From positions 384,001 through 448,000 of the forward strand of contig OZ245742.1 of the NCBI GenBank assembly GCA_965227295.1: a stretch of 64,000 bases of DNA, read 5' to 3'. Of this stretch, positions 37,910 through 54,606 are shown piece by piece (the stretch's first letter is position 1; each line of letters begins with the position of its first letter). The notes below the pieces were generated by a model that was not told where the DNA came from, did not search any database, and was given only the letters and a program-made list of their open reading frames with translations. The stretch is from Leptonemataceae bacterium. GTDB taxonomy: Bacteria; Spirochaetota; Leptospiria; Leptospirales; Leptonemataceae. Made by a program: the position numbers and the translations under genes.

Positions 37910-38968
37910 ATGCCAGCACCTGCCGCCCCGGTCTTGCCCGGCTCCGTCGAACCGTCCCTCAGCAAGATGCGCGGCTACATCCCCGCGCACTGCTTTCGCC
38001 CGCATACCGGCAAGGCCCTGTTCTACCTGCTCACCGCGATTCTGGAAGTCGGCGCGGCCTCGGTGTTCGCGTACATCGTCTGGCTGAACGAGTGGTATGC
38101 ACTGTGGCCCGCGGCCTGGTTCGTCGGCGGCGTCGCCTTCACCTCGTGGTTCGTGGTGGGACACGACTGCGGGCACTACGCCTTCCTGAAAAATCGCCGC
38201 GCCATGGTCGCCGTCGGTCACGTGCTCATGGCGCCGTTGTTCTATCCGTTCTACGCCTGGAAGTACTCCCACGACGCGCATCACAAGAACACGAATCGCC
38301 TCGAACGCACGGACGACGTCTACTTCGACAACGCCTGGATTCCCCATACGGTGGCGGAGCATGAGAGAATGCGCACGGAGTCGCCCTGGGTCCGCCGACT
38401 GTATCGTCTGGCGCGGCGGTTGCCGGCCTTCGGGTCCTTGCTGCATTTGCCGGGCTATTTGTTCCAGGCGGGAATGTTTCGCAAGGATCACCGGCGTAAA
38501 GTGTTGTTCTCGTACGCCTTCGTAGCTGTCGTTTGTATGATGTTAGTGCCGGCGATCTATTTCGCGACGAACTCCTGGTTCGCGGTGCTGCACTTCTGGA
38601 TTCTGCCGGCGCTCCTGTTTCAAATCTGGATGTCCACGTATACGTTCTTGCATCACACCGCCGAAGACATTCCGTTTTATGCCCCGGACGAATGGACCCC
38701 GTTCAAGGGCCAGGCCCTGTCCACCGTGAACGTACGTTTCCCGGCCTGGCTTTCGTTCCTGCACTTCCACATCGACGTACACATCCCGCATCACGTCGCG
38801 CCGAACCTGCCGGCGTATCATCTCAAGCAGGCGAACGCGGCGTTGCAGGCTTCGCCGTACGGCGCGATCATGAAAGAGATGCAGTTTTCCTGGGGCTACC
38901 TGTTCCGACAAATTCGAGCCTGCCGGTTGTGGGACGAGGAGCACCGGAGGTACGTGGGACTGAACTGA
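37910..38968 (+). CDS. Membrane fatty acid desaturase (delta-12-like)
   Basis: Histidine boxes HDCGH, HDAHH and HIPHH. Confidence 0.9.
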   Translation: MPAPAAPVLPGSVEPSLSKMRGYIPAHCFRPHTGKALFYLLTAILEVGAASVFAYIVWLNEWYALWPAAWFVGGVAFTSWFVVGHDCGHYAFLKNRRAMVAVGHVLMAPLFYPFYAWKYSHDAHHKNTNRLERTDDVYFDNAWIPHTVAEHERMRTESPWVRRLYRLARRLPAFGSLLHLPGYLFQAGMFRKDHRRKVLFSYAFVAVVCMMLVPAIYFATNSWFAVLHFWILPALLFQIWMSTYTFLHHTAEDIPFYAPDEWTPFKGQALSTVNVRFPAWLSFLHFHIDVHIPHHVAPNLPAYHLKQANAALQASPYGAIMKEMQFSWGYLFRQIRACRLWDEEHRRYVGLN

Positions 38969-38975
38969 AAAATCT

Positions 38976-41900
38976 TCAGCGCGAATCGCCGCGCAGAAAA
39001 CTCGCCGTCATCAATCGATAACCGTAGTCACCGCTCATTCCGGTTTCCCGGCGTAGATTAAAGATCGCCGCCAGAAACCGGCGGTAGATCTCCGAACCGG
39101 GCAACGTGCGACTGTAATAATCGCGGACGAAGTAAGCGTGGCCGACGGCGTCGGGACTGCGCAGGGTCATCACGCCCGGGCCCTGCAGGTGTTCACCGAG
39201 GCTGTAGAGCAGATAGTTGAAGTTCTCCACCTCGGTCGCCGGATCCAGGATCAAACGGTTGCCGGAGAAAAACCAGGCGCCCGTTGCCGTCTTTGAAACA
39301 CCGCTCAAATCCACCGGGCGATCCGGAAACACGGGCATCAGGAGATGGCGCGGGTCCGCCGGCAGGTCCGAGGCACTGCCGAGGGACAGGCGCTCCATGT
39401 TTGTCAGGCGCCGGAAGAAGAGCGCGCGTTCCTCGCTGCCGTAGAGCTGCGCCGCGCGGCTCCCGCTCGGCTCCGCGCCGATGGACCGTACGCCGAAGCC
39501 TTCAAAGAACTCCGAACCGCTCAGTACCGGCGCCCGCTCGTTTGCCAGCATGGCCCGGGGGTTCAATACTTGAAACAGACGATCACCACGCTCCGGAGCC
39601 AGGGGAGCCAGGGCGTGCACCCCGGGCAACCAGTAGTAGGTGGTGCCGGTCTGGCCCAAACCGAAGAGCGAACGATAGATGCGCGAGAGTTCCTCGCGCA
39701 GATCGTCCGCGGCGCGGCCGGTGCGACGACGAATCAGAAAATCATTCAAGCGCCCGCGCAGGTACCGCCCGCTCGTCTTCAACACGACGCCCTGCAACGC
39801 CCGCTCCCGATACGTAATGCGCACCGCGGACTCGGCGGTATCCACGAACACGACGAACTCCTGGTTGGCCGGCAGCTTCGCAAAGAGTTCCCGGGCCATC
39901 GGTCGCAGCAGAGCGACGTTCGCCGGAGTGCGTCCCAGACGCCGCGCGCTCAGATCGTTGCGGTACTCCTGCTCGAAAAACGCCAGGTCCGCCAGCATAC
40001 GCCAGTCTTCGTCGCCCAGGGCGCGATCCTTCAGGATTGCCGTGGCGGTGAGCACTTCGCGGGGCGGTGACACCGGGCCGGCACTCGCCGCCCCGCTCGC
40101 CGCGCGGACAACCGCATTGAAGGCCTCGATTTCGTCGGAGGAGAACGTGATGGGCAGCTCCGAGTAGAGCCGGTTGACGACGCCCAGATTGTTTGTGTTT
40201 AATGTCTTTTGAAAATCGATTAAGAGCGCGCGGCGCCAACTCTCTTCCGCGGACCGGCGCGCGGAGGCGGGTTTGTCTTTGTGACGTTCCTTCCAGTCCG
40301 CCTGATTGTTGCGGATCTCGGTGAAGAGATCGGCGGCGGAGAGTGCCGTGGCCGTACGCGCCGCACGCAGATCCCGTTCGCGTTCCCGAAGACTCATCGG
40401 CAGTAGATCGATATAGGTCTGAAAGAACCGCCGCGCTGTAATGAAGTCGCCGGCGGTTAAGAACTCGTCCGCGGCGCCCAGGGCCATGTGCGCGGCGCGG
40501 CTGGTGGAATTCTTGCGTTCCACGTCGATGAGATTCTCCAGCAAACGCGCCACCTGGAGTTCGGGATCGCTGTCCGCCGTATCCAGAAGGATGCGGTAGA
40601 TCATGGAACGTTCGAGGAGATCGGCGCGGGTGTACGCGCTGGCCCCGGCCTGGAGCGTTACGTTGGCCACGTCCTGGACGTTGACGTAGTCCTGGCGCCG
40701 ATAGTTCGACCATTGCTCGAACAGCCGGCGGCGAAACTTCTGCATCGCCAGGTCCTGGTCCGGACGATTGCTCATGCTCAGCGCTTGCACGCCGTCGTTA
40801 TAGGCCTGCCAGTCGCCCTGAAACGAAAGATGCAGCAGGTCCGCCGCCGCCGGTTCTTGTTCTTCGAAGGAATTCACGCCGCGCCCGGTCGGAACGGATT
40901 TGCGGCGCGGATCCAGCAAGTGTTCATCGGCCTGCACGGCATAGGCCAGGGCGTCGAAGTTCTCGCGTTCACCGCGGTTCCGCGACCGCGCGCCCTCGGC
41001 CACGCGGCGGGCCTCGTCATGGCGCCCGTGCTTTAGAAGATCTTCAGCGAAACTTAAGGGATCGTCACCGATGACGATCTGGCGGTAGACGCTGTTGAAG
41101 TCCCGTTCGAAGTTTCGGTTCTCCGCGGCGGCGGAGGCGTAGGCCGCGTCGCCGATGCGCGAGCGAAACGTAAGCAGCGCGTTCTTGCGCAGGATGGCAG
41201 CCCGGCGTTCGGGAAAACGACCGACGTACTCTTCGAGATAACGACGCGCCTCGTCCGTGGCTCCCGCAATCAGGAGTGTTTCTACGGCAGTATCGTAGAC
41301 CCGGGCCAGCCGATCGGCATCGCCCTGGTGACGTTCAATCAGAGTGCGCACGACCTCACGGCCCTGTTTGCGCTCATCGGGAAGGCGCAGGAGGACGCGC
41401 GCGCGATCCAGTTGGTTCGTAAAGGCGAGTTCTTTCTTTTGAGGATGACCGTCGATGTAAGCGGAAGCAAGCCGGTAATACTCGAACGCGCGATCGAAGC
41501 GGCCTTCTTCTTCCGCAACACGACCGTTTTCCCGCGCGCGGTTGTAACGTTCCAGCAACTCCGCCGTATGTCGCCGACGATCATGACCGCTGGAACCGAA
41601 GACGCGCAGATTTACTCCGGTGTAACGTTCTCGCCCGCGGGCTTTCATAATGCCGTGCACCGCCGCCCGGGTCGTATCCTCTTCGCGGGCTTCCGCGGCA
41701 TCTTCCAGCTCGTCTTCGCTGAGTTCGGTGTCCGGGGCCAGGGCAATGTCGGCCAGGTGTTCCAGCTCTTCGTCGCCTGCCTCGCCGTACACGAAGGCCA
41801 CCGTGCCGGCGCCCGAGGCGCGCAGAATTTCATACAGTCCGGCCTTGCGCCGGTACGCCTCGGGTCCGCGCCCGCGACCGGTACTCACCACGGCAATCGA

Positions 41901-44900
41901 GGTATAACGCCCGCGACTGATCCATGCAGCCGGATCGAAGAGCAGGTCCTCGGTGGCCGGAAATAACGTACGCTCCGCCGGCATGCGCAGGCCGACGATG
42001 TCCGCGTTCTGGTTGCGCACGCGGTCGCTGTTGAAGACCACGCCGCTCTGCACGTTAAAGAACCGCAGGTCGTCCGGTGCTTCGCGGCTGCGCGTAAGAA
42101 AACCGGCGAAGCGATCGCTGAGGCGCGCCGCGAAAGTAGGCCGCGGTAACTCTTTGTCAATAGAAGCTACGATCTCATTGAAGTCCAGGTGGTACAACTC
42201 AGGCCCGCTGATGATGAAAAGATCCGCCACGGGGCCGGCCGCGGCCGCGCAACGACTCACGAGATCCCGGGCGGCGTTCGCCGGTAACGCGTCCGTGGCT
42301 TTCAGAAAACGGTTGCCGCGGTTCGTGAAACACCAGGCGTCCATTTCCTCCGGGCGACTCGGCCGTACGAAGAAACGCATCAGCACTCCGCCGACACCCA
42401 GGTCGGGACGCAGCGGCTCTTCTTTGCCGGTGATGCGCAGGAAAGGACGCAGCAACGGACGGCGACGTTCCAGGCGTGCCAGGGCCTCGTCGTGCTCCTG
42501 ACGCAGCTCGGTTTTGCGCGCGACGATCTTTTCGAAAGCCCGCCGCTCAATGCGCAATCTTGACTCACTGCGATCGAGCTGGCCCAGACGCAAGCGCGCC
42601 GTGCGTACCGTACGGTAGTCCTGTTCAAACTCCGCATCCTCGAACTGGAGAGGGTTGCGATAAAACTGATCGTTTAAGTAAAACTCCCAGCGCCACTCCA
42701 GCATACGCAGGGCGCGGTTTTCATCGCCCACCTGCACGTAAAAATCCGCGGCGGCCGTGAAGAAAGGATCGGCGTGACGCCGCATGGACGAGTACATGTG
42801 GCGGTTTTCATAAAGTAAAGTGACGGCGTTATCGAATTCTCCCGCGGCCAGGTTGCGATCCGCGGCCCGGCCGTGGGCGGCATGAAGCTCGGCGTAGGTC
42901 TCGGCGAGCAGCGTGCGACCCAACCATTCCTCGCGGATGAGATTGAACTCGTAGGCATCCTCGACGACCTCGATGAGCGCATCGCGAGCGTGATGAAGTT
43001 TACCGGCGTCACGAAAGGCCCGGGCACGGTTCAGTTGAATGCGAATGGTACGTAGCGGGCGCTGGGGATCGCGGATCTTCGGCAACACGGAAAGCGCTTC
43101 GTCGTAGAGTTCCCGGGCGCGTTCGAAATCCTGCAGCGCGGCCCGGCGGTTCGCGGCCGCATCATCCTGCATACGCAAACGACCGCGATAGTAGTGCAAG
43201 GATCCGCCGATGGTCAAAATATCGAGGCGTTGTAGATTGAGGCGCTCATCCAGGGCCGGGCCGTCGCGCTCCTCGTCGTACTCGTAGTCCGGCACCTCGG
43301 AGCGGCGCTGCTGAATGAACTGCTCTTTGAGTTCGTCGCGATACTCCTCGCGAAAGTCTTCCAGTTCACTCAGCGCCTCTTCGATTTCCGCGAGAGAACG
43401 GTTGCGACGATCCTCACGCAGTTCACGTTCTTCTTCCGCATCGAAGCTGTCCGGGTTCTCGACACGCTCACCGGCCTCGAAGTCTGCAAAGAGAGCCTTG
43501 AAGTAGTTGTAGTAATTGCGGCGGAGACTCTGGAGAAAATCGTACTCGCGCGAGACGTCCGCCGCTTCCCGAAAGACGTCGGCGGAGCGGCGAAACTCTT
43601 CGGCACGATACAGGTTCAACGCTTCCTGGTTCAGCGTGGCCGTGTAGCCGAGGCGGCCCAGGCGCACGTCCATATCTTTCGCGAGAAAGGCCTGGCGACG
43701 CTGGCGCAAAAGATAGGCCGCGCCTTCCAGGTCCCCGCGCAGGATGCGGTTCTCCAACTGAATTCCTAAGCTTAAATGATATTGCCTTAACGGAGAGAAG
43801 CCATAGGGATTGCGCCCGTCACCGATGATGGAAAAATCCTCGCCGTACGGTAAAATGCAACCCAGGGCCTTGCCCCCGAGACTCTGGGGTTGGAATCGAT
43901 CGTCGTAGCGGACGAGGCCGTCGTCCCGGGCGTAGCGCGCGGCTTCCCGGGCGCGGACATCGGACTCATAAAAGTCGCGGCGACCCTGATAGGCCAGGGC
44001 CAGGAAGTTCATGAGGCTCGCGCGGTCGATGCCGCCTTCTTCCGATTCGCCGACCCCGTTATCGTAGAGCCGCAGGATCGCATCCTGATAAAATAAAACG
44101 GCTTCGTCGTGTTTGCCGTCTTCCCAGTATGCCAGGCCGATCAGCGCGGCGATGAGGGCCATCTTCGCCCGAACTTCCTCGCTGCGCCGAACAATGCGTT
44201 TGATCTCCTCACGTTGTAGGCGGCGTTCGGTGCTGTCGAGATCCCGGGCGCTGCGCAACAAAAAATTCAGCGTCGAAAACTTCTCGTGCAGCGGCTTGCG
44301 TTCGTACTCGTCGTAGATTTCGTAGGCTCGTTCCAGGCGGAGCACGGCATCGGCCAGCTTGCCGTCGTAAAAAAGCGCTCGTCCTAAGTTAAACTCAAAC
44401 AGGGCGCGGCGTACATAGTCGTCGAAGAAGGCTTCCCCGGCGGCGGCGTTCTGCCCGCCGCTGCTGCCCATGGCCTCCTCGGCTTTGCGATAGTGTTCCA
44501 CGGCACGCTGAAAGTTCAGCAATTGAAAGTAGTTGTTCGCTAAGTTTAGATTCAGAGAAGCTACGGCGCGGGGGGCGCCGGCGTCCGCCTCGACCTTCTG
44601 CAATGCCTGGCGGTACAGCTCGACGTTGGATTCGTAGAGGTTCTCCGGAAAGAATACCTGGTACAGATCCGCGTAAAAGCGTCCGTCGGTTTGCGTGGTC
44701 TGCTGTGTGCGTGTAAGCGTAAGATAGATGTTTTCCAGCAGCGACGGGACCGTCTTCACTTCTTTGGAGCGGCGTTCGTCGATGTACTGGTGCAGCCAGC
44801 CCAGGAGCAGGTAGGCGTCCACGTTCAGCGGGTCCACGTTCAGGATGTACTGCAGCAGATACTCCGCGTTTTTCATGTCGCGCAGGATCTCTTCTTTCTT

Positions 44901-47900
44901 TTCGATGAGCAGGGAGCGCGGGAGCTCGACTCCGCCTGGCTGTAATTGCGCAAGCCCCGACAGGGTCCCGCTTTGCGCCGCCGCGCGGTTCTGGATGCGA
45001 TCGTAGTAACGCTCCCGCTCGACGTTCTTGCGAATGAGGATGTAGGCGTAACCGTAGATCGAAGAGAGATCGCCGATGCGCGCCGCGGGTTCGAGAGAGG
45101 TGCGATAACCGAAGATGAGGCGATCGAAGGACTCGGAGGCGTACGGATCGCTCTGGGCGAACAGGTCCTGGACGTCGGCGCCTTCCAGCAGGACGATCTC
45201 CCGCTCCCGGGCTTCCAACTGGCGTTGATTCTGCTCCGCGGCAATGTCGATCTTGAGGCGCTGGTAATGAACCGCGCGTTCTTCGTAGAGATCGCCCAGG
45301 ACGTCCAGCTTCTTAATATTAAAAAACATAATATTAAGCACCGCGGCGTTCGCGTAGCTGGCGGTATAGAGCAGATCCGCGGCGGCCCGGGCGCTGCGAA
45401 TGGGAAACTTACGATAGTTGCGGTTCTGGATCAGTTGCTCGTTGTTGATGCAAAATTCAATGTAACGTTCTTTGTACCCCGGCCCCAGTGGAGTAAACAG
45501 CGAACCCGTGCGGGACGAGGGCTGGCAGAATTCGTAGAGCACGTCCATTTCCGCGCCGCCGATGTCGATGGGCGTGTTGCTGATCTGGGTAATGGCGGTA
45601 CCGATCGTCTCGCCCAGGATCAGGCTTTCATTGGCCTTGACCGCCGCGGAAATGCTGCGCGCCGTTCTTAAGTACAGGTTAATGTAACCTTCGGACTCGT
45701 TGATAATCTCCACGAAGTCCTCGGTATTGATCGTAACACCGGCTTCTTTGGAGTAGGCGCCGCCGTAGGCAAGTTTCGCCTCGTAGGCCTGAGAGTACTC
45801 GCCGCGCCGTTCATAGACGTAAGAAGAAATCCGCCAGGCCCGCACGTAGACGGAACGCCAGCCGTCCTGGGGTCCGCCGGCTCCGTCCAACGGCGGCGGG
45901 ATGCGCGGAACCTCCGCGAGCAGTGACTGGCATTCGTTGAGCGCGGGCTGGTACTGGCGATCTTCAAACAGGGCCCGCGCCTTTACGGTGCGCAGAGTCG
46001 CCCGCACGAAAACGTCGGAGTTCGGCGACTTCTGCAATGCGAAGAAAGCCAATTCCAGGGCCTCCGCGGGAGAACGCTGCGTATAAAAGAAATCGAATAA
46101 ATCCGAATGCACTTCTTCCTGCAGGCGCGCCCGATCCTTGTGACAGCGCTCGGCCTCGTGGGCGGGTTCCGTCGGGCACGGCGTATTGCGCAACGCCTGC
46201 ATGAGAATTTCGTAGGTGTGCGGCAAGAACGGCAGTTGCTGAAGTTCATCGACGTTGCGCGCCTCGCGCAGACGTTGATAGTTTTCGATCAGCTCCAGGC
46301 GCGCCTGTTCGCGCAGCGTTTCGAAACGACGATAGTAGTTCGGAAAGTTTTCGTTTAAGAACGTAACGGCCACCAGGGCCTCGACGAAACGCTCCCGCGA
46401 ATGATAGTACTCCGCCAGGCGGTCGTACGCCGCCGCCGTCACAATCTTGCGTTGCGCGTCGTTGAACCCGCCTTCGCCCTGGCGCGTGTTTTCAATGAAG
46501 GCGGTGATCTGCGGGGCCTGATCCCGGCCTTCTTGCTTGAGCTTGTAGAGTTGGTACAACAGGGCGGTGTAGGGATTCGCCCGCCCGCGCTCTTCGATCT
46601 TCGCGCGGGTTTCTTCGGCCAGGCGATCCTCGTTGCGCAGCCGGTGAAACTCCAGACGATCCAGTAAGATGCGCCCTTCGTAAATTAAGAACTCGCCGCT
46701 TTCGCCGAAGTACTGCTCCACGGCGTCCAGGGCTAACAGGTAACGATTCGGGCTTTCGGTGCGATAGTTCTCGGTCAGATGATACTGCCGGTCGATGTCC
46801 GGTTCCAGCGGGATCACGCCGCGGGGTCGCATGAAGTACACGTTCACGCTGTTGTACAATCTTGCGCCGTAGAGCAACATGCCGCCGCCGTGATCCGAAT
46901 GCGTGGTGGAGAGAATCGTCGTATCGTCCCCGAGGATCTTGCGTTCGTGCGCACCCTGCACGTCCAGGTCCCGGGCAAAGACCGCGGCCGCATCGCCGTC
47001 GTCCAGGCGCCCGTTACGATTGCTGTCCCGACGCACGGAGGCGTAGTACAGGGTGCGACCCGGTAACACATTGCCGCGCGGATCCCGGCGCCGGGTCAGC
47101 GCCGGATCCGAGTACAGATATCTTTGACCGGTCGTGCCCGTGGGCAGTTCCAGTTCGAAGGTTTCCATATCGTCCAGGCGGGTGAGGTAGATCGCACTCT
47201 CGCCGGCACGATTGACGACGTAGACGATTTCTTTTGAATCGGAACCGAAGCCCGGTTGAATGCCGCCGCTGCGCGTGATCTGCCGGAGAGCAACGGGCAC
47301 ATCGGCATCCATCTCCATGATCCAGACGTTGTAGAGGTTCGGCGAACAGCGATCCGTAACGAAAGCCAGAGCGGTGCCGTTGTGATTCCAGACCGGATCG
47401 GTTTCGGCGGCCTGGCCGTGACATTGGGGCGGCAGGCTTGCCGCGGCCAGTTCCTGGATCGCGGGACTCAGGTTGCGGCTCTCTTCCCAGACGTCCTCCG
47501 GCGGCAGACCGTTCAACGTATCCAGCATGATCTCTTCGGGATCGATCGTTACGATGCGCAGGTCCCCGCGCGTATCGACGTCCTCGGAGACGAAGACGAG
47601 ACGATCGCCTTCGGCGGTAATGGCAGGTTTGTATTGTTCCGCCGGATGTTTGACCAGAGGCACACTGACGGTGCTGTCGAGATCACGCAGCCAGACGTCC
47701 CCCGAGCCCAGGACGTTCGAGGTATAAACCATGTGACCGCTGAGCGCGACGGAAGATTGCAGATTGGTGCCGCGTTGAATGGTGAGCGGAAAGTAGCCGC
47801 CGGGATTGTCGCGGTAGTAACGCTCGGAGAGTTGGCCGTAATCGAAGGCCGGCGGATCCAGGGCCGGAGCCGAAGCACAGGCCGGTAACAGCACCGCCCC

Positions 47901-47939
47901 GAGGACGACGAGGCAGACATACCGCCGCAACGCAAGCAT
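38976..47939 (-). CDS. Giant lipoprotein (~2990 aa): TolB/PD40 propeller, long TPR solenoid, two degenerate CHAT-like domains
   Basis: Lipobox LLPAC; PD40-like repeats (KPAITAEGDRLVFVS, DPVWNHNGTALAFVT); many TPR helices; TAATG stop/start overlap with the upstream gene. Confidence 0.8.
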   Translation of the reverse strand: MLALRRYVCLVVLGAVLLPACASAPALDPPAFDYGQLSERYYRDNPGGYFPLTIQRGTNLQSSVALSGHMVYTSNVLGSGDVWLRDLDSTVSVPLVKHPAEQYKPAITAEGDRLVFVSEDVDTRGDLRIVTIDPEEIMLDTLNGLPPEDVWEESRNLSPAIQELAAASLPPQCHGQAAETDPVWNHNGTALAFVTDRCSPNLYNVWIMEMDADVPVALRQITRSGGIQPGFGSDSKEIVYVVNRAGESAIYLTRLDDMETFELELPTGTTGQRYLYSDPALTRRRDPRGNVLPGRTLYYASVRRDSNRNGRLDDGDAAAVFARDLDVQGAHERKILGDDTTILSTTHSDHGGGMLLYGARLYNSVNVYFMRPRGVIPLEPDIDRQYHLTENYRTESPNRYLLALDAVEQYFGESGEFLIYEGRILLDRLEFHRLRNEDRLAEETRAKIEERGRANPYTALLYQLYKLKQEGRDQAPQITAFIENTRQGEGGFNDAQRKIVTAAAYDRLAEYYHSRERFVEALVAVTFLNENFPNYYRRFETLREQARLELIENYQRLREARNVDELQQLPFLPHTYEILMQALRNTPCPTEPAHEAERCHKDRARLQEEVHSDLFDFFYTQRSPAEALELAFFALQKSPNSDVFVRATLRTVKARALFEDRQYQPALNECQSLLAEVPRIPPPLDGAGGPQDGWRSVYVRAWRISSYVYERRGEYSQAYEAKLAYGGAYSKEAGVTINTEDFVEIINESEGYINLYLRTARSISAAVKANESLILGETIGTAITQISNTPIDIGGAEMDVLYEFCQPSSRTGSLFTPLGPGYKERYIEFCINNEQLIQNRNYRKFPIRSARAAADLLYTASYANAAVLNIMFFNIKKLDVLGDLYEERAVHYQRLKIDIAAEQNQRQLEAREREIVLLEGADVQDLFAQSDPYASESFDRLIFGYRTSLEPAARIGDLSSIYGYAYILIRKNVERERYYDRIQNRAAAQSGTLSGLAQLQPGGVELPRSLLIEKKEEILRDMKNAEYLLQYILNVDPLNVDAYLLLGWLHQYIDERRSKEVKTVPSLLENIYLTLTRTQQTTQTDGRFYADLYQVFFPENLYESNVELYRQALQKVEADAGAPRAVASLNLNLANNYFQLLNFQRAVEHYRKAEEAMGSSGGQNAAAGEAFFDDYVRRALFEFNLGRALFYDGKLADAVLRLERAYEIYDEYERKPLHEKFSTLNFLLRSARDLDSTERRLQREEIKRIVRRSEEVRAKMALIAALIGLAYWEDGKHDEAVLFYQDAILRLYDNGVGESEEGGIDRASLMNFLALAYQGRRDFYESDVRAREAARYARDDGLVRYDDRFQPQSLGGKALGCILPYGEDFSIIGDGRNPYGFSPLRQYHLSLGIQLENRILRGDLEGAAYLLRQRRQAFLAKDMDVRLGRLGYTATLNQEALNLYRAEEFRRSADVFREAADVSREYDFLQSLRRNYYNYFKALFADFEAGERVENPDSFDAEEERELREDRRNRSLAEIEEALSELEDFREEYRDELKEQFIQQRRSEVPDYEYDEERDGPALDERLNLQRLDILTIGGSLHYYRGRLRMQDDAAANRRAALQDFERARELYDEALSVLPKIRDPQRPLRTIRIQLNRARAFRDAGKLHHARDALIEVVEDAYEFNLIREEWLGRTLLAETYAELHAAHGRAADRNLAAGEFDNAVTLLYENRHMYSSMRRHADPFFTAAADFYVQVGDENRALRMLEWRWEFYLNDQFYRNPLQFEDAEFEQDYRTVRTARLRLGQLDRSESRLRIERRAFEKIVARKTELRQEHDEALARLERRRPLLRPFLRITGKEEPLRPDLGVGGVLMRFFVRPSRPEEMDAWCFTNRGNRFLKATDALPANAARDLVSRCAAAAGPVADLFIISGPELYHLDFNEIVASIDKELPRPTFAARLSDRFAGFLTRSREAPDDLRFFNVQSGVVFNSDRVRNQNADIVGLRMPAERTLFPATEDLLFDPAAWISRGRYTSIAVVSTGRGRGPEAYRRKAGLYEILRASGAGTVAFVYGEAGDEELEHLADIALAPDTELSEDELEDAAEAREEDTTRAAVHGIMKARGRERYTGVNLRVFGSSGHDRRRHTAELLERYNRARENGRVAEEEGRFDRAFEYYRLASAYIDGHPQKKELAFTNQLDRARVLLRLPDERKQGREVVRTLIERHQGDADRLARVYDTAVETLLIAGATDEARRYLEEYVGRFPERRAAILRKNALLTFRSRIGDAAYASAAAENRNFERDFNSVYRQIVIGDDPLSFAEDLLKHGRHDEARRVAEGARSRNRGERENFDALAYAVQADEHLLDPRRKSVPTGRGVNSFEEQEPAAADLLHLSFQGDWQAYNDGVQALSMSNRPDQDLAMQKFRRRLFEQWSNYRRQDYVNVQDVANVTLQAGASAYTRADLLERSMIYRILLDTADSDPELQVARLLENLIDVERKNSTSRAAHMALGAADEFLTAGDFITARRFFQTYIDLLPMSLRERERDLRAARTATALSAADLFTEIRNNQADWKERHKDKPASARRSAEESWRRALLIDFQKTLNTNNLGVVNRLYSELPITFSSDEIEAFNAVVRAASGAASAGPVSPPREVLTATAILKDRALGDEDWRMLADLAFFEQEYRNDLSARRLGRTPANVALLRPMARELFAKLPANQEFVVFVDTAESAVRITYRERALQGVVLKTSGRYLRGRLNDFLIRRRTGRAADDLREELSRIYRSLFGLGQTGTTYYWLPGVHALAPLAPERGDRLFQVLNPRAMLANERAPVLSGSEFFEGFGVRSIGAEPSGSRAAQLYGSEERALFFRRLTNMERLSLGSASDLPADPRHLLMPVFPDRPVDLSGVSKTATGAWFFSGNRLILDPATEVENFNYLLYSLGEHLQGPGVMTLRSPDAVGHAYFVRDYYSRTLPGSEIYRRFLAAIFNLRRETGMSGDYGYRLMTASFLRGDSR

Positions 47940-48595
47940 TATGAACCGGTGCGCTTCCATTCTTTGCGTTCGGTATAGATCCATTCGCCGCTGCGATTAC
48001 GCGCGGCCTCGTACCAGCGCAGCAGAAACTCTTTGCGCAGCCGTTCCCGTTCTTCGTTCGAAGCTCCAGACCGCGCCCGCTCGTACTCGTAAATCCAGCG
48101 GCGCGCGCGATTGACCTCGTCGGCCACGGCGGCGGCGTTTTCGATTTCGTCGGAAGTTCCCGAGCGGCGGCGCAACGAAGACGGAACCGGGCGCAGCAAA
48201 CCGTCGAAACCTTCGCCCAGTAACTCATCCCGGCGGTACTTTAAGATCACGGGGTAGTAGAACTCCAGGACGTCCGCCTCGATGTTGTAGCGTCGGTCTT
48301 CCCGGCGCTCCGTCATCACGCCGTCTCCGGGACGGGCGCTGCCGACTTCACCGGACACGCTCTGCGCGCTGGCGATGAGCCAGCCGTCCTCTTCGATCTC
48401 ACCCTCGGTGCCGATCAACTGGCGCTCCGCCGCGGTTCGTTCCGGTGTCAGCGTAATCGGCGGCACGTCCACCGAAATGCAGGCTCCGCGCCGCAACAAC
48501 TGCATGGCCGGGTCCCGCACCGGTTCCAACAGCACGCACTGGCTCAGCGTCGTTGCGATCAGCGCGGCGAATGTTGTTCTTACTATAATCTTCAA
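47939..48595 (-). CDS. DUF1318 (YdbL-like) lipoprotein
   Basis: TTG start, lipobox TLSQC; LLGEGFDGLL..VADEVNRARRWIYE..SGEWIY..EWKR match the YdbL pattern. The ORF-track N-terminal extension is a translated repeat. Confidence 0.75.
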   Translation of the reverse strand: MKIIVRTTFAALIATTLSQCVLLEPVRDPAMQLLRRGACISVDVPPITLTPERTAAERQLIGTEGEIEEDGWLIASAQSVSGEVGSARPGDGVMTERREDRRYNIEADVLEFYYPVILKYRRDELLGEGFDGLLRPVPSSLRRRSGTSDEIENAAAVADEVNRARRWIYEYERARSGASNEERERLRKEFLLRWYEAARNRSGEWIYTERKEWKRTGS

Positions 48596-48667
48596 GAATC
48601 CTTTGGCGCGCCTCTGGTTCAAACACGGCGCCGAATCTAAGTATAAAAAAATTAAAGTTACTGTTTT

Positions 48668-48775
48668 GGGCGTGCCCCTCCGCGCTTCGCGCTCCGGGTC
48701 GGGCTTTCCAGGGCTCCGCTTCGCTTCGGTCCTTCGGACTGGCGGCTGCGCCGCCACCCTTCCAATCCCTCACGC
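48668..48775 (+). ncRNA. Flavo-1-like structured repeat, copy E
   Basis: GGGCGTGCCCCTCC..GGGTCGGGCTTTCCAGGGCTCCG...ACCCTTCCAATCCCTCACGC. Confidence 0.65.
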
Positions 48776-48824
48776 AAGGACACGATCACATGCATACGCC
48801 TGCCGGCTCTCCTGCCTTCTTCCC

Positions 48825-48848
48825 CTCGGCACCTCGGTGCCTCGGTGT
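48825..48848. repeat. Solo arm of the long-inverted-repeat family
   Basis: ctcggcacctcggtgcctcggtgt resembles the right arm at 35975-35997; no partner arm was found. Confidence 0.5.
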
Positions 48849-48857
48849 ACATCTTTC

Positions 48858-51800
48858 TTACTCCACCGCCTCGACTTCACTGCCTTCCCGGAACTCACTG
48901 CGCGCGCGTTCCAGAAACTGCGCAATGGGCATGCGTTCCTGTTTGATCTCCTCTCCCCCCGGTTTCACCAGGATGCCGATGGCCCCGCCGCGGCGCACCC
49001 GCACGTACGAATACACGAGGCCGCCCTTCAACTCCACGCGAATGCTCGGAATCGCCAGCGTATTGTTCACGAGCAACGCCGCCACCTGGGTCGGCAACAG
49101 AATGCGCGTCACGAATCCGCTGAAGTCCTGTTCAATCTGATGAATCGACAACAACGCGTCCGTCGAGTAGAGATAATCCTCCAGGCTGCGCGTCGTCCAG
49201 CGTAAATCACCGGAGATTTCTCCCTTATACCGGTTCCGCCCGGGCAGGTACGGCTCGAGGTCCAGACGTTGCACCTGCAGGTTCAGTCCGGCTTCCATGT
49301 TCTTCTGCTCCAGGTCCGCCAGGTTAAAAAACAGACCACGGCCGTCCACGGTGCCGCCGGGTTCCCAGCGCGGCGCGCCGCCCTGTTCCGGCACGATTCG
49401 TTTGTGCGTGAGCATGCGCAGCCACTCAATCAACAGAATATTATTGCGATAGTCCACCCGCGCCGCGAGGCCCGGCTCGCCTTCGGCGGCCGGCGTGCCC
49501 GCGTAGTAGAAACGATAGACCGGCTCATGACCGAAGAACTCGCCGCGCGGGCTGTGCGAAGAGGAAAGCCCGCGTACGGTAAGATTCGGCTCGCTGGTCC
49601 GCCCGTAAGTGTTCTGGTAGGATCGGCCGGCGTTGTCGCTCAGGCGCAGGAGTTCCTTCGGATCAAGATCGTGTTCGAACGGCAGATCCAGGTTCAGATC
49701 TTTCACCGATAGACGATAGCAATCCGGACCGGGATTCGCGACGGCGCACGGGCCGTCGTTGTACACCAGGCTCAGCCCCTCCACGTCGATGCTGCCCTTC
49801 GCGGCGTTCTTTGCCACGTTCATGGCCAGCTTCAATGAACCCTGCATGCTGACGTTCTCGTGGACCCGGAACATGGAATCCCGCACCACGCGCAAATCCA
49901 CATCGGCCAGGGGAGTCCACTTCGCGTCCTCGCCCTCCCCGCTCTTCGTTAAAGTAAAATCCGCGTCCGCAAAGAGGGCGCCGCGCAGACCGCGCAGCCG
50001 CGCCGGTTGAATGCGAATCTCACGCTCGCCGAGAAAGACGTCCGCCTCGGCGTCCAGATCCTGAAGGCGCAGATAGGGGATGGCCAGGTTCGTACCCCGA
50101 CGCACTTTAATAGAAGTAAATCCGTCACCGAAACGCAGTTCGAACGGACTCTTCAGCGATACGCCTTTCGAAAGATACGTTTTGTACGGCGCCATAGTAT
50201 ACTGCAAACTACCGGGAAAGACGGCGTGCAGGTTCTCGTAGTCCACGTCCAGGGACTTCACGTTCACGTCGTACACGTGGTCGTCACCGAAACGAATGTT
50301 GCCGTCGGCGAAGAGATTGGCCAGGCGTTCGCCGGCCTGATTGCGCCCGTCCAGCTTTAGATCGCGCACGTCGATGGTAAGATCGTCCTCGAACAGCAAG
50401 GCCCCGTCGGCGTCGAGGGTGAGCCGATGCAGACCGGAGCGCGAGCGACCGATGAAGTAGCGGCCGTTGTTCAAACGTACCACGCCGTCGAAACCCAGGC
50501 GCCGAAAGTTTTCCGGGCTGCGCAGTTTGATGTCCGCGTCCACCCGGCCGCGGAGAATCTCCGGCACCAGGGTATCCAGGTCCAGGCCGGTGAGTTTGAG
50601 GTTCGCCGTCACGCCCTCCGCCGGAGCGAGGGCCGCGTCGCCCCTGAGGCGCGTCGCCCCGTACAACACTCGCAGTTCCGGCATGAGCAGTCGATAGAAG
50701 ATGCCGTAGACCAGGTCCTTGTCCGGCACGTAATCCGCCGGCGGATCGACGAACGGCAGCACCTGGTACAAATCCACGAGCGCCGCTAAGTCTACTTTAA
50801 AATCTCTTAGCGTCTCAATGCCCGAACCCGGAGCGATGATGACGCGCTGTGCTTCGATGTCGCCTTTCAAACTCAGGCGCTCCAGGCTGCCGAAGAGCTG
50901 CAACTCCTGAATCGTCGCCTCGCCTTCGATGAACGGTTTCGCCGCCCCCGTGATCGCGGCGATGAGACGGCCTACCGGTTCCAGATTAATGCTCGACCTC
51001 GCCACATCCAGGCGCAGACTGCGCGCGGACCCGGCGTCCGGAGAGGCGGCGTTGTTGACCTCGGCGGTAACGGTCAGCCAGCGATCGTTTGCGTGCTGCA
51101 CCTGAAATATAGGAATCAGCAAACGATCACTGGCCGCGTCGTAGGCGGTGTCGTAGTAGATCGAGAGCGGGACGCGCCGTGCCGCGGATCCGCCGCGGCG
51201 CAGACTTACTTCGGAGGTATCGGCGACGAGACGCGAGGCGAACTCGGTGACGCCTTCGCCGGTTTCGCGAAAGAGAAAGTAGGTGAGCCGCAGCCGCCCG
51301 TCGATGGACCGGTCCGCGCCCTTTAACTTGAGGTTCACGGGCTGGTAAGGATTCAGGGCGATGAGCAGCGTATCGAAGACGTCGAGTACATCCAGGGACA
51401 ACGGAATTTCCCGGAACGAACGCGTAATCGCCGCCACGCGCAGGTTAACGTTGTCGACGTTCAGGCGAAACTCGTCGCCGCTCTCTGCATCGACAGTGTG
51501 CATCGTCAGCGCAAAACGTTCGATGTAGACGTTCGCATAGACCTGAAAACGAAAGAACAGATTCACCGCCTCGGGGAGCGGCGTATCGTCTTCGTCCGGC
51601 GGCGGCTCGCTGCCTTCACCGGACGAAAATGCCGCCCAGTTCCAGCGCCCGTCCATCTTCGTTAAGTAGAGATGCGGCGCCTGGAGATGCAGCGTCCGCA
51701 GCCCCACGCGACCGATGAGCACGGACGGCAAAAACCAGGCCAGGCGCAGGCGTTCCGCGGTGACCAGCGGCCGGCCGCTCACGGAGTCCGAGAGTTTAAT

Positions 51801-52073
51801 GTCCCGGATGTCGAAGCCGTAGACCAGGCTCGCGCGTTCGACGTTGAGTTCGATCTTCGCGTCGGAGTTGCCTTCGACGAGCGTCCGCACGAGATACTCC
51901 ACGTTCGAAGGCTGCATCAGTATGTAGTACACAAGACTGAGCAGGAAAAGCGGCACGCTCAGCCGGAAGAGCCACTTCCCGGGACCCGAGCGCGAAAACC
52001 GCGAGAAGCGGCCCGGGCTCCCGGACGGAGCGCCGGAGGACTGTGGATCTTCGCCGGACCTGGCCATAGGCAT
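48858..52073 (-). CDS. AsmA/YdbH-like intermembrane bridge protein (1071 aa)
   Basis: N-terminal TM anchor, AsmA-like N-domain (LRTLHLQAPHLYLTKMDGRWNW), long amphipathic beta-strand repeats; lies upstream of a YdbL-like gene. Confidence 0.7.
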   Translation of the reverse strand: MPMARSGEDPQSSGAPSGSPGRFSRFSRSGPGKWLFRLSVPLFLLSLVYYILMQPSNVEYLVRTLVEGNSDAKIELNVERASLVYGFDIRDIKLSDSVSGRPLVTAERLRLAWFLPSVLIGRVGLRTLHLQAPHLYLTKMDGRWNWAAFSSGEGSEPPPDEDDTPLPEAVNLFFRFQVYANVYIERFALTMHTVDAESGDEFRLNVDNVNLRVAAITRSFREIPLSLDVLDVFDTLLIALNPYQPVNLKLKGADRSIDGRLRLTYFLFRETGEGVTEFASRLVADTSEVSLRRGGSAARRVPLSIYYDTAYDAASDRLLIPIFQVQHANDRWLTVTAEVNNAASPDAGSARSLRLDVARSSINLEPVGRLIAAITGAAKPFIEGEATIQELQLFGSLERLSLKGDIEAQRVIIAPGSGIETLRDFKVDLAALVDLYQVLPFVDPPADYVPDKDLVYGIFYRLLMPELRVLYGATRLRGDAALAPAEGVTANLKLTGLDLDTLVPEILRGRVDADIKLRSPENFRRLGFDGVVRLNNGRYFIGRSRSGLHRLTLDADGALLFEDDLTIDVRDLKLDGRNQAGERLANLFADGNIRFGDDHVYDVNVKSLDVDYENLHAVFPGSLQYTMAPYKTYLSKGVSLKSPFELRFGDGFTSIKVRRGTNLAIPYLRLQDLDAEADVFLGEREIRIQPARLRGLRGALFADADFTLTKSGEGEDAKWTPLADVDLRVVRDSMFRVHENVSMQGSLKLAMNVAKNAAKGSIDVEGLSLVYNDGPCAVANPGPDCYRLSVKDLNLDLPFEHDLDPKELLRLSDNAGRSYQNTYGRTSEPNLTVRGLSSSHSPRGEFFGHEPVYRFYYAGTPAAEGEPGLAARVDYRNNILLIEWLRMLTHKRIVPEQGGAPRWEPGGTVDGRGLFFNLADLEQKNMEAGLNLQVQRLDLEPYLPGRNRYKGEISGDLRWTTRSLEDYLYSTDALLSIHQIEQDFSGFVTRILLPTQVAALLVNNTLAIPSIRVELKGGLVYSYVRVRRGGAIGILVKPGGEEIKQERMPIAQFLERARSEFREGSEVEAVE

Positions 52074-52176
52074 TCAGAGCGTACGGCATTGCGTCACGGC
52101 CAGGAAAATTTCACCACCGATTTTGGGCCTTCGGGATGAATTTTCCGCTGCCGGACTTCGATGATAAACTACAGGC

Positions 52177-52560
52177 ATGCCCGGCAATCAGATACGTATC
52201 ATGGTCGTCGACGACGATCCCGAAATTCCCCGACTCATCCAGGCCCTCATCCCGGCCGATCGTTTCAAGATCAGCACGGCCTTCCATACCCAGGATGCGC
52301 TCACGAAGTTTCGGGACGAACATCCGCAACTCATCTTCCTGGACATCCACATGCCCGGCGCCTCGGGTTTCGTGGCCCTGCGCCGCCTGCGCAGCCTCGC
52401 CGCCGATACGTCCCGGGACGTGAAGATCATCATGCTCACCGCGCAGAAAACGAAAGAGGACGTCACGACGGCCCTGGCCTACGGCGCGGATGATTATCTC
52501 GTGAAGCCGTTTACGAAAGAGACGCTGATAGCGAAGATCGATCGGCACTTTCCGGGGTAG
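52177..52560 (+). CDS. Single-domain response regulator (CheY-like)
   Basis: IMVVDDD, FLDIHMPG, IIMLTA, DYLVKPF. Confidence 0.92.
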   Translation: MPGNQIRIMVVDDDPEIPRLIQALIPADRFKISTAFHTQDALTKFRDEHPQLIFLDIHMPGASGFVALRRLRSLAADTSRDVKIIMLTAQKTKEDVTTALAYGADDYLVKPFTKETLIAKIDRHFPG

Positions 52561-52599
52561 GGGCCTGCATTGCCTCAAGAGATCGCATCGCTGAAATCA

Positions 52600-53085
52600 C
52601 TACCTTCTTCTGCGCTTTTTAGGTTCAGCCAGACCCGTTATGCCATTTCGATTGAAGGCGTTCTTGATATGGAATTTTTGTTCGAAAGAGTAGTAGGATG
52701 ATTTCAGTACCAATTCGTAGCAACGCTTTAGCAGATCCGCCGAGAACGAACCTTTTACTTCAATTTGTTTTGAGTCAATTCTCCGTTCGACTTCTTGCTC
52801 AGGTTCGATCTTGGGAGGCGCACCAAAATCCAGAAGGCATTGCTGGTCAAATCCATAGTCGGCAAAGCCCGGTAGTCGCAGAATGGGATTGCCAGACCTC
52901 AATGCTCCCTCCTCGTAGTATTGGAACTGAGTAGTTGCTTTCACCAATATCAGGTAAGTCGGTTCTTCAATCAGCCCTGTATCACCCAGAACCACGAACC
53001 AAAAAGGTTTGATCGGAGATTGAGGATCATCCGGATTCTCGTATGAGTTCCATTTGAGAACCTGACCGGTTTTGCTAAAAGGCAT
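52600..53085 (-). CDS. Putative toxin partner of the Panacea antitoxin (possibly PemK/MazF-like fold)
   Basis: 9 bp downstream of the Panacea gene; AT-rich; GQVL..KPFWFVVLG..LILVKATTQ recalls the PemK-like beta barrel. Confidence 0.6.
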   Translation of the reverse strand: MPFSKTGQVLKWNSYENPDDPQSPIKPFWFVVLGDTGLIEEPTYLILVKATTQFQYYEEGALRSGNPILRLPGFADYGFDQQCLLDFGAPPKIEPEQEVERRIDSKQIEVKGSFSADLLKRCYELVLKSSYYSFEQKFHIKNAFNRNGITGLAEPKKRRRR

Positions 53086-53094
53086 AAACTTCTT

Positions 53095-53661: not shown

Positions 53662-53858
53662 TCCCCCGTAAAATCATGGAGGCGCAGGCATATAAATGTA
53701 TAGTGCATATAGCGCCGTGTCAAGCCAGAAGTTTCCAAAAAATGAGCGCATCGCAAGAACGCACATGCGGGATTTCTCTATCCTGACACCTATCTGCCAT
53801 TTTTTCAGCCTCACGACTCCAGAGGCCCGCGAAACCCGCCCCCGGCACGCCTCCTCAC

Positions 53859-53874
53859 TGGCACGTCACTTGCA
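53859..53874 (+). promoter_or_regulatory. Sigma-54 (-24/-12) promoter upstream of hsp20
   Basis: TGGCACG-TCAC-TTGCA matches the TGGCACG-N4-TTGCW consensus exactly, about 80 bp before the ATG. Confidence 0.7.
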
Positions 53875-53956
53875 ATCCTGCAGATACAGAGCGGCGCAAG
53901 ACGCCGGCTCCACATGAAATCTAACAACTGAGTTTCTAAAACAGGAGGAACAACCA

Positions 53957-54440: not shown

Positions 54441-54606
54441 GTACGCCTGCATTCTAGTTTCCGTTGCGTAAACCTTTGCAACGAAGCGCCGTCCTCCGTG
54501 CAGCTTCTACAGATTCGCGTCCGATTTTCATGTTAGCGCCGGGAGTCCGGCGGGCTCCGGTTTACGAATGCCGCTCGCTTTGCTTCGATGCGGAAGGAGA
54601 GCAATC

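Follow-up and report, generated by a model that had tools for sequence, protein, structure and literature searches.

Whether the Leptospirales possess a variant of the lipid bridges that cross the envelope of E. coli is the question raised by three adjacent genes in a 64,000-nucleotide stretch of DNA from a Leptonemataceae bacterium, called the window here. The route of phospholipids to the outer membrane is a long-standing question to which AsmA-like bridges are the current E. coli answer, and the outer-membrane ends and the helpers of such bridges are known in few proteobacterial systems only. In E. coli, the genes ydbH-ynbE-ydbL provide an AsmA-like bridge, the outer-membrane lipoprotein that goes with it and the modulator YdbL, according to the account in PMC11126948. 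The original prediction for the window was a YdbH/YdbL-like bridge joined by a giant lipoprotein. Full-text literature searches on AsmA-like proteins and TamB in Leptospira, on LIC11026-LIC11028, DUF748 and DUF1318, and on AsmA-like proteins with CHAT domains returned no paper describing such a system. By the analysis given below, the trio is real and conserved and is judged to be a so far uncharacterised variation on the theme of AsmA-like envelope bridges, and genome context suggests that the three proteins work together.

The three open reading frames are co-directional, as predicted, and are all present on the minus strand of the window (Table 1), in a genome with a G+C content of approximately 60%. 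Chance ORFs are ruled out by the many homologues of each gene and by the repetition of the gene order in 19 other genomes. The longest ORF of gene 2 runs from GTG 48757 (272 aa) to the TAA stop at 47941-47939, and TTG 48595 is favoured as the start by the homologues, by a signal peptide with lipobox (..ATTLSQC) and by the AAAGGA located 3 nt upstream. The residue numbers of gene 2 used here are one higher than those counted from this TTG because the reference, 47939-48598, begins one codon early. For gene 3 the listed ORF starts at ATG 47984 (3002 aa), and the start at ATG 47939 (2987 aa) agrees with the signal peptide, the lipobox (LLPAC) and database entry P0059, which is identical to the giant. 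This ATG overlaps the gene 2 stop, which bears out the predicted TAATG coupling of the giant to the middle gene. Gene 1 is set apart by a 262-nt spacer, so that translational coupling applies to genes 2 and 3 only and genes 1 and 2 may be expressed separately. No terminator-like site was listed within this spacer, and a promoter and terminator scan of 38700-52400 was uninformative: it counted 5 promoter-like sites where 3.3 were expected, and 18 terminator-like sites where 13.7 were.

Table 1. Positions of the three genes and their features in the window
Feature	Position	Strand	Basis
Gene 1, AsmA-like, LIC_11026 family, predicted inner-membrane-anchored, 1071 aa	48858..52073	-	NCBIfam, AlphaFold2, Foldseek
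Gene 1, predicted single membrane-anchor helix, residues 31-52	51918..51983	-	Model, hydrophobic stretch in translation
Spacer between genes 1 and 2, 262 nt, AT-rich stretch and AAAGGA ribosome-binding site	48596..48857	-	Sequence
Gene 2, lipoprotein with YdbL/DUF1318 C-terminal domain, 218 aa from TTG	47939..48595	-	Homologues, lipobox
Gene 2, N-terminal conserved domain, fold not recognised, residues 22-112 (+1 numbering)	48263..48535	-	Invariant columns
Gene 2, YdbL/DUF1318 domain, residues 113-219 (+1 numbering)	47942..48262	-	hhalign, PDB, Pfam
TAATG, gene 2 stop overlapping gene 3 start	47937..47941	-	Sequence
Gene 3, giant lipoprotein, 2987 aa	38976..47939	-	Database entry P0059, homologues, candidate lipobox
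Gene 3, TolB-like beta-propeller, approximately residues 50-400, borders approximate	46740..47792	-	Profile against PDB
Gene 3, long TPR/alpha-helical region, approximately residues 401-1848, borders approximate	42396..46739	-	Pfam, PDB TPR proteins
Gene 3, first alpha/beta domain, residues 1849-2119, lower-confidence model	41583..42395	-	AlphaFold2
Gene 3, second alpha-helical solenoid, residues 2120-2688	39876..41582	-	All-helical in model
Gene 3, C-terminal CHAT-like alpha/beta domain, residues 2689-2987	38979..39875	-	Model, Foldseek, Atlas

The original prediction stood or fell with the synteny of the three genes elsewhere, and this was followed in 19 related loci, all from Leptospirales, or 20 when the window is counted in. 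The pattern for the genome scan was taken from gene 2, so loci without gene 2 could not be found. The trio was syntenic in 19/19 loci, with the gene-1 family upstream in all 18 having upstream sequence and the giant downstream in 19/19; the synteny was seen within the Leptospirales only and not across phyla. The nearest relatives retrieved are Leptospirales metagenome-assembled genomes, none of them named Leptospira. In 12/20 loci the first candidate start of the giant overlaps the gene 2 stop, and in the other 8 it lies 0-13 nt past that stop. The spacer in front of gene 2 in the window is the longest among the 19 loci compared, and in 16/18 loci no more than 96 nt separate the gene-1 stop from the Cys codon of gene 2. 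Among the neighbours, an MFS transporter gene is next upstream in 12/19 loci, preceded in 5 by a DUF374 gene, and a convergent sigma-54 activator gene is found just downstream of the giant in 7/19. When the window was searched, neither these three nor the short-chain dehydrogenase neighbour of other loci was found in it.

The product of gene 1 was claimed to be a membrane-anchored, beta-rich protein with an AsmA-like fold, and the results agree with this. It scored 411 bits against the NCBIfam model NF047499 of the LIC_11026 family (cut-off 325), and its AlphaFold2 model (pLDDT 90.2) shows a helix spanning residues 31-52 and, after it, about 55 beta strands over about 1000 mostly-beta residues. 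The model has the single N-terminal membrane anchor and large predicted periplasmic domain of the AsmA-like superfamily, and the elongated beta-sheet rod of bridge-like lipid-transfer proteins, a likeness shared with TamB, AsmA and DUF748 proteins and with eukaryotic bridge-like proteins such as LPD-3/BLTP1. The top Foldseek match in the PDB was LPD-3 (9cap_A, probability 0.97, E 9.6e-6, with a TM-score of only 0.13), followed by LptD (0.66-0.69) and ApoB100 (0.38-0.60); the remaining matches were mostly unrelated beta-rich proteins with probabilities below 0.3, and Foldseek TM-scores were low (0.13). TamB was not among the 50 Foldseek matches listed, and the profile of the gene-1 family against the PDB retrieved TamB alone, at E 0.15. 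The window's own copy scored 20.9 bits against Pfam DUF748 (PF05359), below the cut-off of 50. Of its relatives, 32/46 matched DUF748 or AsmA (PF05170) at E <=0.01 and 14 matched nothing, and 4/46 exceeded the AsmA cut-off and 1/46 that of DUF748. These matches all fall within the first 200-260 residues or so, and the family showed no Pfam similarity past the first 200 or so. An HHpred comparison given in PMC4494059 relates DUF748 to TamB and AsmA. Unlike the TamB/AsmA/DUF748 group, the gene-1 family is narrow, with 165 representatives among 1.84 billion, and has no Omp85 partner gene nearby. Membership of the YdbH family was considered and rejected, as no PF11739 match was found, E. coli YdbH itself matching at 3e-291 in the control, and hhalign of the family profile against E. 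coli YdbH gave a probability of 0.3%. Taken together, family, N-terminal similarity in relatives and modelled fold support gene 1 as a probable AsmA-like protein.

Gene 2 was described as a DUF1318-like lipoprotein, and the lipobox and a YdbL domain were both found, with the DUF1318 match confined to the C-terminal half of the product. The lipobox Cys is nearly invariant in the alignment of homologues, of which 51 were retrieved, some annotated as YdbL family or DUF1318. The window's own copy scored 21.1 bits against Pfam DUF1318 (PF07027, cut-off 27), and DUF1318 was found in 41/49 members of the family at E <=1, the best at 1.7e-9. By hhalign the C-terminal domain matched E. coli YdbL along its full length (YdbL residues 23-107) with a probability of 94% and E 1e-7, and the PDB entry of YdbL, 28oj_A, was matched at E 0.007. 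G128, E129, G133, N163, R166 and W206 of gene 2 are invariant or nearly so and align with G34, E35, G39, N58, R61 and Y96 of YdbL; E129, N163 and R166, opposite E35, N58 and R61, are at least 90% conserved, and YdbL Y40 is not retained, being aligned to Leu. As reported in the preprint 10.64898/2026.03.16.712125, YdbL needs E35 and N58 for function and R61 belongs to its interface with YnbE. Unlike YdbL, a small soluble periplasmic protein of about 90 mature residues, the gene 2 product has its YdbL domain lipid-anchored with an additional conserved domain of 90 residues ahead of it, doubling the length. The invariant columns of this N-terminal domain span P46-W73 and the motif VDxPPITLTPERTAAERQLIGE is the densest run of them in the alignment; no PDB match and no usable Atlas match was found for the domain. 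A complex prediction for gene 1 residues 700-1071 with the mature gene 2 protein returned a score of 0.00, 'no answer', neither for nor against binding.

The lipid anchor and the YdbL domain of gene 2 would be combined if the protein were a functional fusion of YnbE and YdbL, in which the N-terminal domain extends the AsmA-like groove to the outer membrane by beta-strand addition and the YdbL domain controls this step. We regard this as quite improbable. In its favour, gene 2 is lipidated like YnbE, its densest invariant columns lie in the N-terminal domain, and the ORF list shows no YnbE-like small ORF in the spacer at 48596..48857 or elsewhere in the operon, most loci being too tight for one. 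An alignment by hhalign, itself non-significant, also places PITLT of the motif on the YnbE beta-strand PITIN. Against it, the YnbE family PF13617 (Lipoprotein_19) was matched by 0/49 gene-2 family members at E <=1, E. coli YnbE matching at 3e-16 in the control, and hhalign of the N-terminal domain against YnbE gave E 0.1 and a probability of 0.6%; a separate hhalign of gene 2 against YnbE aligned the signal peptide alone. The motif also has prolines and a stretch, ERTAAERQL, that appears helix-like by eye, unlike the YnbE strand. By hhalign the N-terminal domain also gave no significant match to YdbL (E 0.37) or to the protein's own C-terminal half (E 0.12). Internal duplication and kinship to YnbE are both unsupported. 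The predicted merging of the YnbE and YdbL roles in the middle protein has no sequence support, and nothing was found that speaks directly against a YnbE role of the protein.

The giant was predicted to be a lipoprotein made of a TolB-like propeller and TPRs, and all of this was recovered. A candidate lipobox Cys after a hydrophobic stretch follows a candidate start in 20/20 sequences, 19 orthologues and the window, and homologues range from 1923 to 3078 aa and carry the precomputed Pfam accessions PF26549 and PF26550. Like TolB of Tol-Pal, the giant has a PD40-type beta-propeller, matched by profile to PDB TolB chains at E 4e-12, and PD40 repeats occur in its homologues down to E 4e-28. Unlike TolB it is lipidated, the propeller makes up only about 12% of the protein and no tol or pal genes are adjacent. 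It was rejected as a TolB equivalog, with scores far under the cut-offs of the NCBIfam equivalog models (28.5 bits against 343 and 19.9 against 405) and the similarity limited to the propeller. Pfam TPR matches were found at residues 1131-1153, 1266-1288 and 1600-1659, PDB TPR proteins were matched as well, and residues 950-1480 form a strongly conserved block. Counted along the modelled segment, residues 60-330 make up the first alpha/beta domain, with block pLDDT values of 46-89, mostly below 75, and residues 331-899 the second solenoid; the C-terminal alpha/beta domain was modelled at pLDDT of about 85-95.

It is this C-terminal part that the original prediction missed. The last 1200 residues, solenoid included, matched Csx29, separase and DdvA with a Foldseek probability of 1.00, and the Atlas neighbours of the C-terminus are CHAT clusters (score 0.95, 180 shared features). 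Judged by its modelled fold, the giant is more than a propeller with TPRs and has a C-terminal TPR-CHAT/separase-like module. As in the TPR-CHAT proteins Csx29 and DdvA and in separase, helical repeats are followed by a caspase-like alpha/beta domain in the same order. The giant differs from these in its lipid anchor and its place outside the cytoplasm, in its fusion to a TolB-like propeller and in being 3-4 times longer, and it has no CRISPR or sigma-factor context. Pfam CHAT (PF12770) was matched by 0/13 giant C-terminal segments at E <=10, and no Cys column in residues 2689-2987 reaches 70% conservation. His2775 is kept in 18/22 and His2934 in 17/22 sequences, both counted as alignment columns.

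These likenesses bear on the possibility that one transcript serves two functions, genes 1 and 2 forming an AsmA-like/YdbL-like lipid module and the giant working in the periplasm on its own, as a TPR-CHAT regulator or as a TPR-CHAT protease whose active site is unusual, with no contact to the bridge. This is considered unlikely. The matches to the Craspase protease Csx29, the anti-sigma factor DdvA and separase, which come from different settings, speak for it, together with the two retained His columns and the convergent sigma-54 activator gene downstream. Speaking against it are the CHAT-like domain devoid of a conserved Cys column, the absence of Pfam CHAT matches and the coupling of the giant's start to the gene 2 stop and to no other gene in 20/20 loci, down to 20-28% identity. 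PADLOC defence models also matched none of the three proteins (0/3), and a defence-system reading was dropped on that account.

Lipoproteins with TPRs or beta-propellers, such as BamB and BamD, typically serve as scaffolds to which proteins bind, and the CHAT/separase fold binds extended peptides. Both facts would suit a system that handles proteins rather than lipids. Such a system would resemble TAM or aid the export of lipoproteins, with the AsmA-like protein and the TPR/propeller scaffold acting as chaperones for outer-membrane or surface proteins on their way through the periplasm. Also in favour of it, the assembly of outer-membrane proteins was the first role tied to TamB-type proteins, and the gene of spirochaete TamB lies beside that of BamA, as described in PMC4494059. 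Against it, no Omp85/BamA-type gene was found among the gene families conserved in the 19 loci, the MFS and DUF374 genes upstream are a context not suggestive of protein assembly, and the only characterised YdbL-containing system is, in the account of PMC11126948, a lipid bridge. Protein handling seems a rather remote prospect.

The operon shares with the E. coli YdbH-YnbE-YdbL system an inner-membrane AsmA-like protein at its start, a DUF1318/YdbL domain and a lipoprotein. It differs in that gene 1 falls outside the YdbH family, no YnbE match was found, and the coupled 2987-aa lipoprotein is without enterobacterial counterpart at the ydbH locus. The reading that we put first, with about even confidence, is that this Leptospirales-conserved three-gene operon most likely builds a periplasm-crossing bridge for envelope lipids. 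The product of gene 1 would be anchored with one helix in the inner membrane, and the approximately 1000 residues in the periplasm would form an AsmA-like repeating beta-groove, a lipid conduit as suggested by its fold and family. Gene 2 may work at the bridge's far end as a tethered factor for docking or chaperoning, its YdbL-type domain keeping residues aligned to those that YdbL needs, one of them at the partner-helix interface. Gene 3 would be made in step with gene 2 by means of the overlapping stop and start codons, and could act as a non-catalytic scaffold or regulator holding or positioning the bridge in the envelope, with a TolB-like propeller, some 1400 residues of TPR and a putative TPR-CHAT module having lost the usual protease cysteine. 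The gene structures, the assignments to families and folds, the lipoboxes and the conserved synteny with its stop/start coupling are what the analysis shows; mutual binding of the three proteins, the membrane location of each lipoprotein and lipid as the cargo are what we infer beyond these.

A more far-reaching form of the bridge reading is put forward tentatively and with some doubt: the lipid-anchored YdbL-domain protein may replace YnbE at the outer-membrane end, with the giant as a third, indispensable subunit spanning or organising the periplasm. If true, the giant could tie lipid flow to the cell wall or gate it by a protease-like peptide-binding cleft, the trio would represent a trans-envelope machine of a new class, and in the giant a CHAT-fold protein would for the first time have a structural part in envelope biogenesis.

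The operon presents a natural variant of the AsmA-like bridge in a distant phylum, with a membrane-tethered YdbL helper and a huge added scaffold, from which testable predictions on the docking and control of such bridges follow. Since the LIC_11026 family takes its name from a gene of Leptospira interrogans, the result may bear on envelope biogenesis in leptospires, to whose biology the outer membrane is central.

The three genes lie in the same direction on the minus strand of the window (G+C about 60%), as seen in both the ORF listing and the raw sequence, and encode in order an AsmA-like protein of the LIC_11026 family (gene 1), a lipoprotein with a YdbL/DUF1318 domain (gene 2) and a giant lipoprotein (gene 3). 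The preferred start of gene 2 is TTG 48595 with AAAGGA three bases upstream, and it is favoured by aligning 48 homologues, by the presence of a signal peptide and by a lipobox Cys that hardly varies; residue numbers of gene 2 run one higher, the reference 47939-48598 beginning one codon before this TTG. For gene 3, the alternative start at ATG 47939 gives a standard signal peptide and lipobox (LLPAC) and corresponds to the identical 2987-aa database entry P0059. This ATG overlaps the gene 2 stop as TAATG, exactly the coupling claimed in the original prediction. Genes 1 and 2 are separated by a 262-nt spacer (48596-48857), in which an internal promoter is possible. Since the upstream neighbour, a response-regulator gene, is divergent and the downstream neighbour, a desaturase gene, is convergent, the unit consists of three genes. 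The desaturase gene ends only 7 bp from the giant's stop, a pairing not seen in the other loci compared.

Conservation of the trio was investigated in 185,579 species genomes, scanned once with the gene 2 pattern ITLTPx[RK]TAA; this gave 19 related loci, none of them from Leptospira proper, and, the pattern being derived from gene 2, loci without gene 2 are undetectable. Labels were Leptospirales, Leptospiraceae or Leptonemataceae for 17 loci, Spirochaetaceae for two, Spirochaetales for one and only "bacterium" for one, and this pattern scan found nothing outside Leptospirales. A member of the gene 1 family is located directly upstream of gene 2 on the same strand in all 18 loci with upstream sequence (L005 begins inside gene 2 and was left out), and the giant directly downstream in 19 of 19, interrupted by contig ends in six. 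In one locus (L014:4631-12874) three ORFs take the place of the giant, and in another (L009:6917-9974) two ORFs take that of the AsmA-like gene; these breaks may be genuine or may stem from faulty assembly. With the window included, an overlap between the gene 2 stop and the first candidate start of the giant (ATGA, TAATG or TGATG) is present in 12 of 20 loci, and in the remaining eight this start is found 0-13 nt past the stop. Between the gene 1 stop and the gene 2 Cys codon, 16 of 18 loci have 8-96 nt and the other two 139-163 nt, some of the cysteines picked perhaps being off by a few residues; at 319 nt the window is far above these 18 relatives (8-163 nt).

Gene 1 is assigned to the LIC_11026 family by NCBIfam (411 bits, cut-off 325), and Pfam gave a sub-threshold N-terminal DUF748 match (20.9 bits vs cut-off 50) and nothing else. 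Among 46 relatives scanned, DUF748 was matched in 31, AsmA in 13 and either in 32 (E<=0.01), always within the first ~260 residues; AsmA was above cut-off in four and DUF748 in one, and 14 lacked any match to the two. DUF748 is related by HHpred to TamB's DUF490, AsmA and DUF3971, according to the accessible text of PMC4494059. The family is narrow, with 165 representatives at E<=0.001 in an exhaustive search of 1.84 billion. The AlphaFold2 model (100 sequences; mean pLDDT 90.2, pTM 0.70) places about 55 beta strands after a helix at residues 31-52, and its best Foldseek match in the PDB was the LPD-3 complex 9cap_A (E 9.6e-6, probability 0.97). LPD-3 is the BLTP1 of C. elegans, one of the bridge-like lipid-transfer proteins. 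Next came LptD (probability 0.66-0.69) and ApoB100 (0.38-0.60), then unrelated beta-rich proteins of low probability; TM-scores were low (0.13), as might be expected with long rods, and TamB was absent among the best 50 matches. The family profile gave no alignment with E. coli YdbH (probability 0.3%), and a PF11739 match was not found. It is concluded that gene 1 encodes an AsmA-like protein but not YdbH, so that of the YdbH-like bridge first proposed the AsmA-like part is retained, through the LIC_11026 family and the LPD-3 fold match, and the YdbH part is not.

Gene 2 is related to 51 proteins at E<=0.001 in a word-indexed search; a DUF1318 domain is precomputed for 12, and the names given at source are "YdbL family protein" for two and "DUF1318 domain-containing" for one. 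The window's own copy falls below the Pfam DUF1318 cut-off (21.1 vs 27 bits), and 41 of 49 family members match DUF1318 at E<=1 (best 1.7e-9). By hhalign the family aligns with residues 23-107 of E. coli YdbL (probability 94%, E 1e-7), the aligned part being confined to the C-terminal half, and the solved YdbL chain 28oj_A is matched at E 0.007. Columns G128, E129, G133, N163, R166 and W206, invariant or at least 90% conserved, have G34, E35, G39, N58, R61 and Y96 as their counterparts in YdbL. E35 and N58 are reported necessary for function, and R61 is placed at the interface with the YnbE C-terminal helix, in the accessible text of preprint 10.64898/2026.03.16.712125. The densest run of invariant columns is in the N-terminal half (residues 22-112), with the motif VDxPPITLTPERTAAERQLIGE..GWLIAS; this half gave E 0.37 against YdbL, 0.12 against its own C-terminal half and 0.1 against YnbE, and no match in the PDB or the Atlas. 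The proposal that gene 2 combines YnbE and YdbL found no sequence support on the YnbE side, that family being matched by none of the 49 members, with E. coli YnbE as positive control matching at 3e-16. Nor was a small ynbE-like ORF present in the 262-nt spacer, which includes an AT-rich run.

Full-length matches to the giant comprise 13 proteins of 1923-3078 aa, the window's own included, and a 22-sequence alignment is conserved throughout, most at residues 20-400 and 950-1480. A candidate lipobox, a hydrophobic stretch followed by Cys, follows a candidate start in 19 of 19 orthologues from the related loci, as it does in the window. The family profile matches TolB chains (E ~4e-12, profile positions 172-292) and, in its middle part, TPR proteins; homologues contain PD40 repeats with E down to 4e-28, and for the homologues P0064-P0071 the Pfam accessions PF26549 and PF26550 are precomputed. 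In the language-model Atlas the last 1288 residues matched CHAT-domain clusters only (score 0.95, 180 shared features), and Pfam CHAT was matched by 0 of 13 C-terminal segments. Residues 1790-2987, modelled by AlphaFold2 from 13 sequences (pLDDT 79.9, pTM 0.68), fall into three parts: an alpha/beta domain of low model quality, a helical solenoid and, at the C-terminus, a second alpha/beta domain that is modelled well. Foldseek matched this model at probability 1.00 to human and worm separase, the anti-sigma factor DdvA and Csx29, the TPR-CHAT protease of Craspase. The last domain has no cysteine column at 70% conservation and retains two histidines in 17-18 of 22 sequences; as no cysteine is conserved, the classical cysteine-protease site seems to have been lost, as read from the alignment rather than a structural superposition. 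Elsewhere C173, C198, C805 and C830 are each kept by 20 of 22 sequences and may pair up as two disulphide bonds, which would fit a location outside the cytoplasm.

Directly before gene 1 and on its strand, 12 of 19 loci (L004, L007, L009-L011, L014-L020) have an MFS transporter gene, itself preceded in five of them by a DUF374 gene, and these may be fourth and fifth operon members with a lipid-related role. In seven of 19 (L002, L003, L007, L016, L017, L019, L020) the giant's end faces a convergent gene for a GAF/sigma-54 activator. None of these three neighbours occurs within the window, where positions 52001-54000 upstream of the trio are low in G+C (0.50 vs about 0.61 around). This stretch sits where the related loci often carry the MFS gene. 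The SocA/Panacea-domain ORF in it may form a toxin-antitoxin pair with the adjoining 161-aa ORF. Further away, the 1769-aa protein had no match in PADLOC, and the DUF1554 family, which is typical of Leptospira, would fit the Leptospirales placement of the window.

Features of the trio and its surroundings, in window positions or, for L016, in positions of that related locus
Feature	Position	Strand	Remark
Gene 1	52073 to 48858	minus	1071 aa
Gene 2	stop TAA at 47941-47939	minus	longest ORF from GTG 48757
Gene 3	listed from ATG 47984	minus	3002 aa; alternative ATG 47939
Conserved cysteines C173/C198 of gene 3	about 47346-47423
Conserved cysteines C805/C830 of gene 3	about 45450-45527
Response-regulator gene	52177-52560	plus	single-domain; upstream, divergent from gene 1
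Fatty-acid desaturase gene	37910-38968	plus	downstream, convergent with gene 3
161-aa ORF	52600-53085	minus	no family; adjoins SocA/Panacea ORF
SocA/Panacea-domain ORF	53095-53661	minus	in low-G+C stretch
Hsp20 gene	53957-54385	plus	after SocA/Panacea ORF
1769-aa protein	54568-59877	plus	DUF6519, DUF2341, LamG-like domain, phage tail collar domain
DUF1554 protein	20134-21102	minus
MFS gene (example)	L016:5633-6868
DUF374 gene (example)	L016:4791-5633
Sigma-54 activator gene (example)	L016:18929-20581	minus

No paper on the three-gene system was found in the literature covered, which leaves out subscription journals and supplements, and its parts are already catalogued in databases, through a hypothetical equivalog in NCBIfam, names of the "YdbL family" type and accessions in Pfam. 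In E. coli, according to the accessible text of PMC11126948 and preprint 10.64898/2026.03.16.712125, YdbH has its anchor in the inner membrane, YnbE as a lipoprotein of the outer membrane lengthens the YdbH groove by strand addition, and YdbL binds the YnbE C-terminal helix and controls YnbE multimerisation. Going further than family, fold and gene linkage themselves show, we infer by analogy that gene 1 would be the lipid conduit and gene 2 a membrane-tethered docking or chaperone factor acting through its conserved YdbL pocket. Gene 3, made in step with gene 2, would be a non-catalytic scaffold whose propeller, TPRs and protease-like cleft may bind partners and position the bridge.
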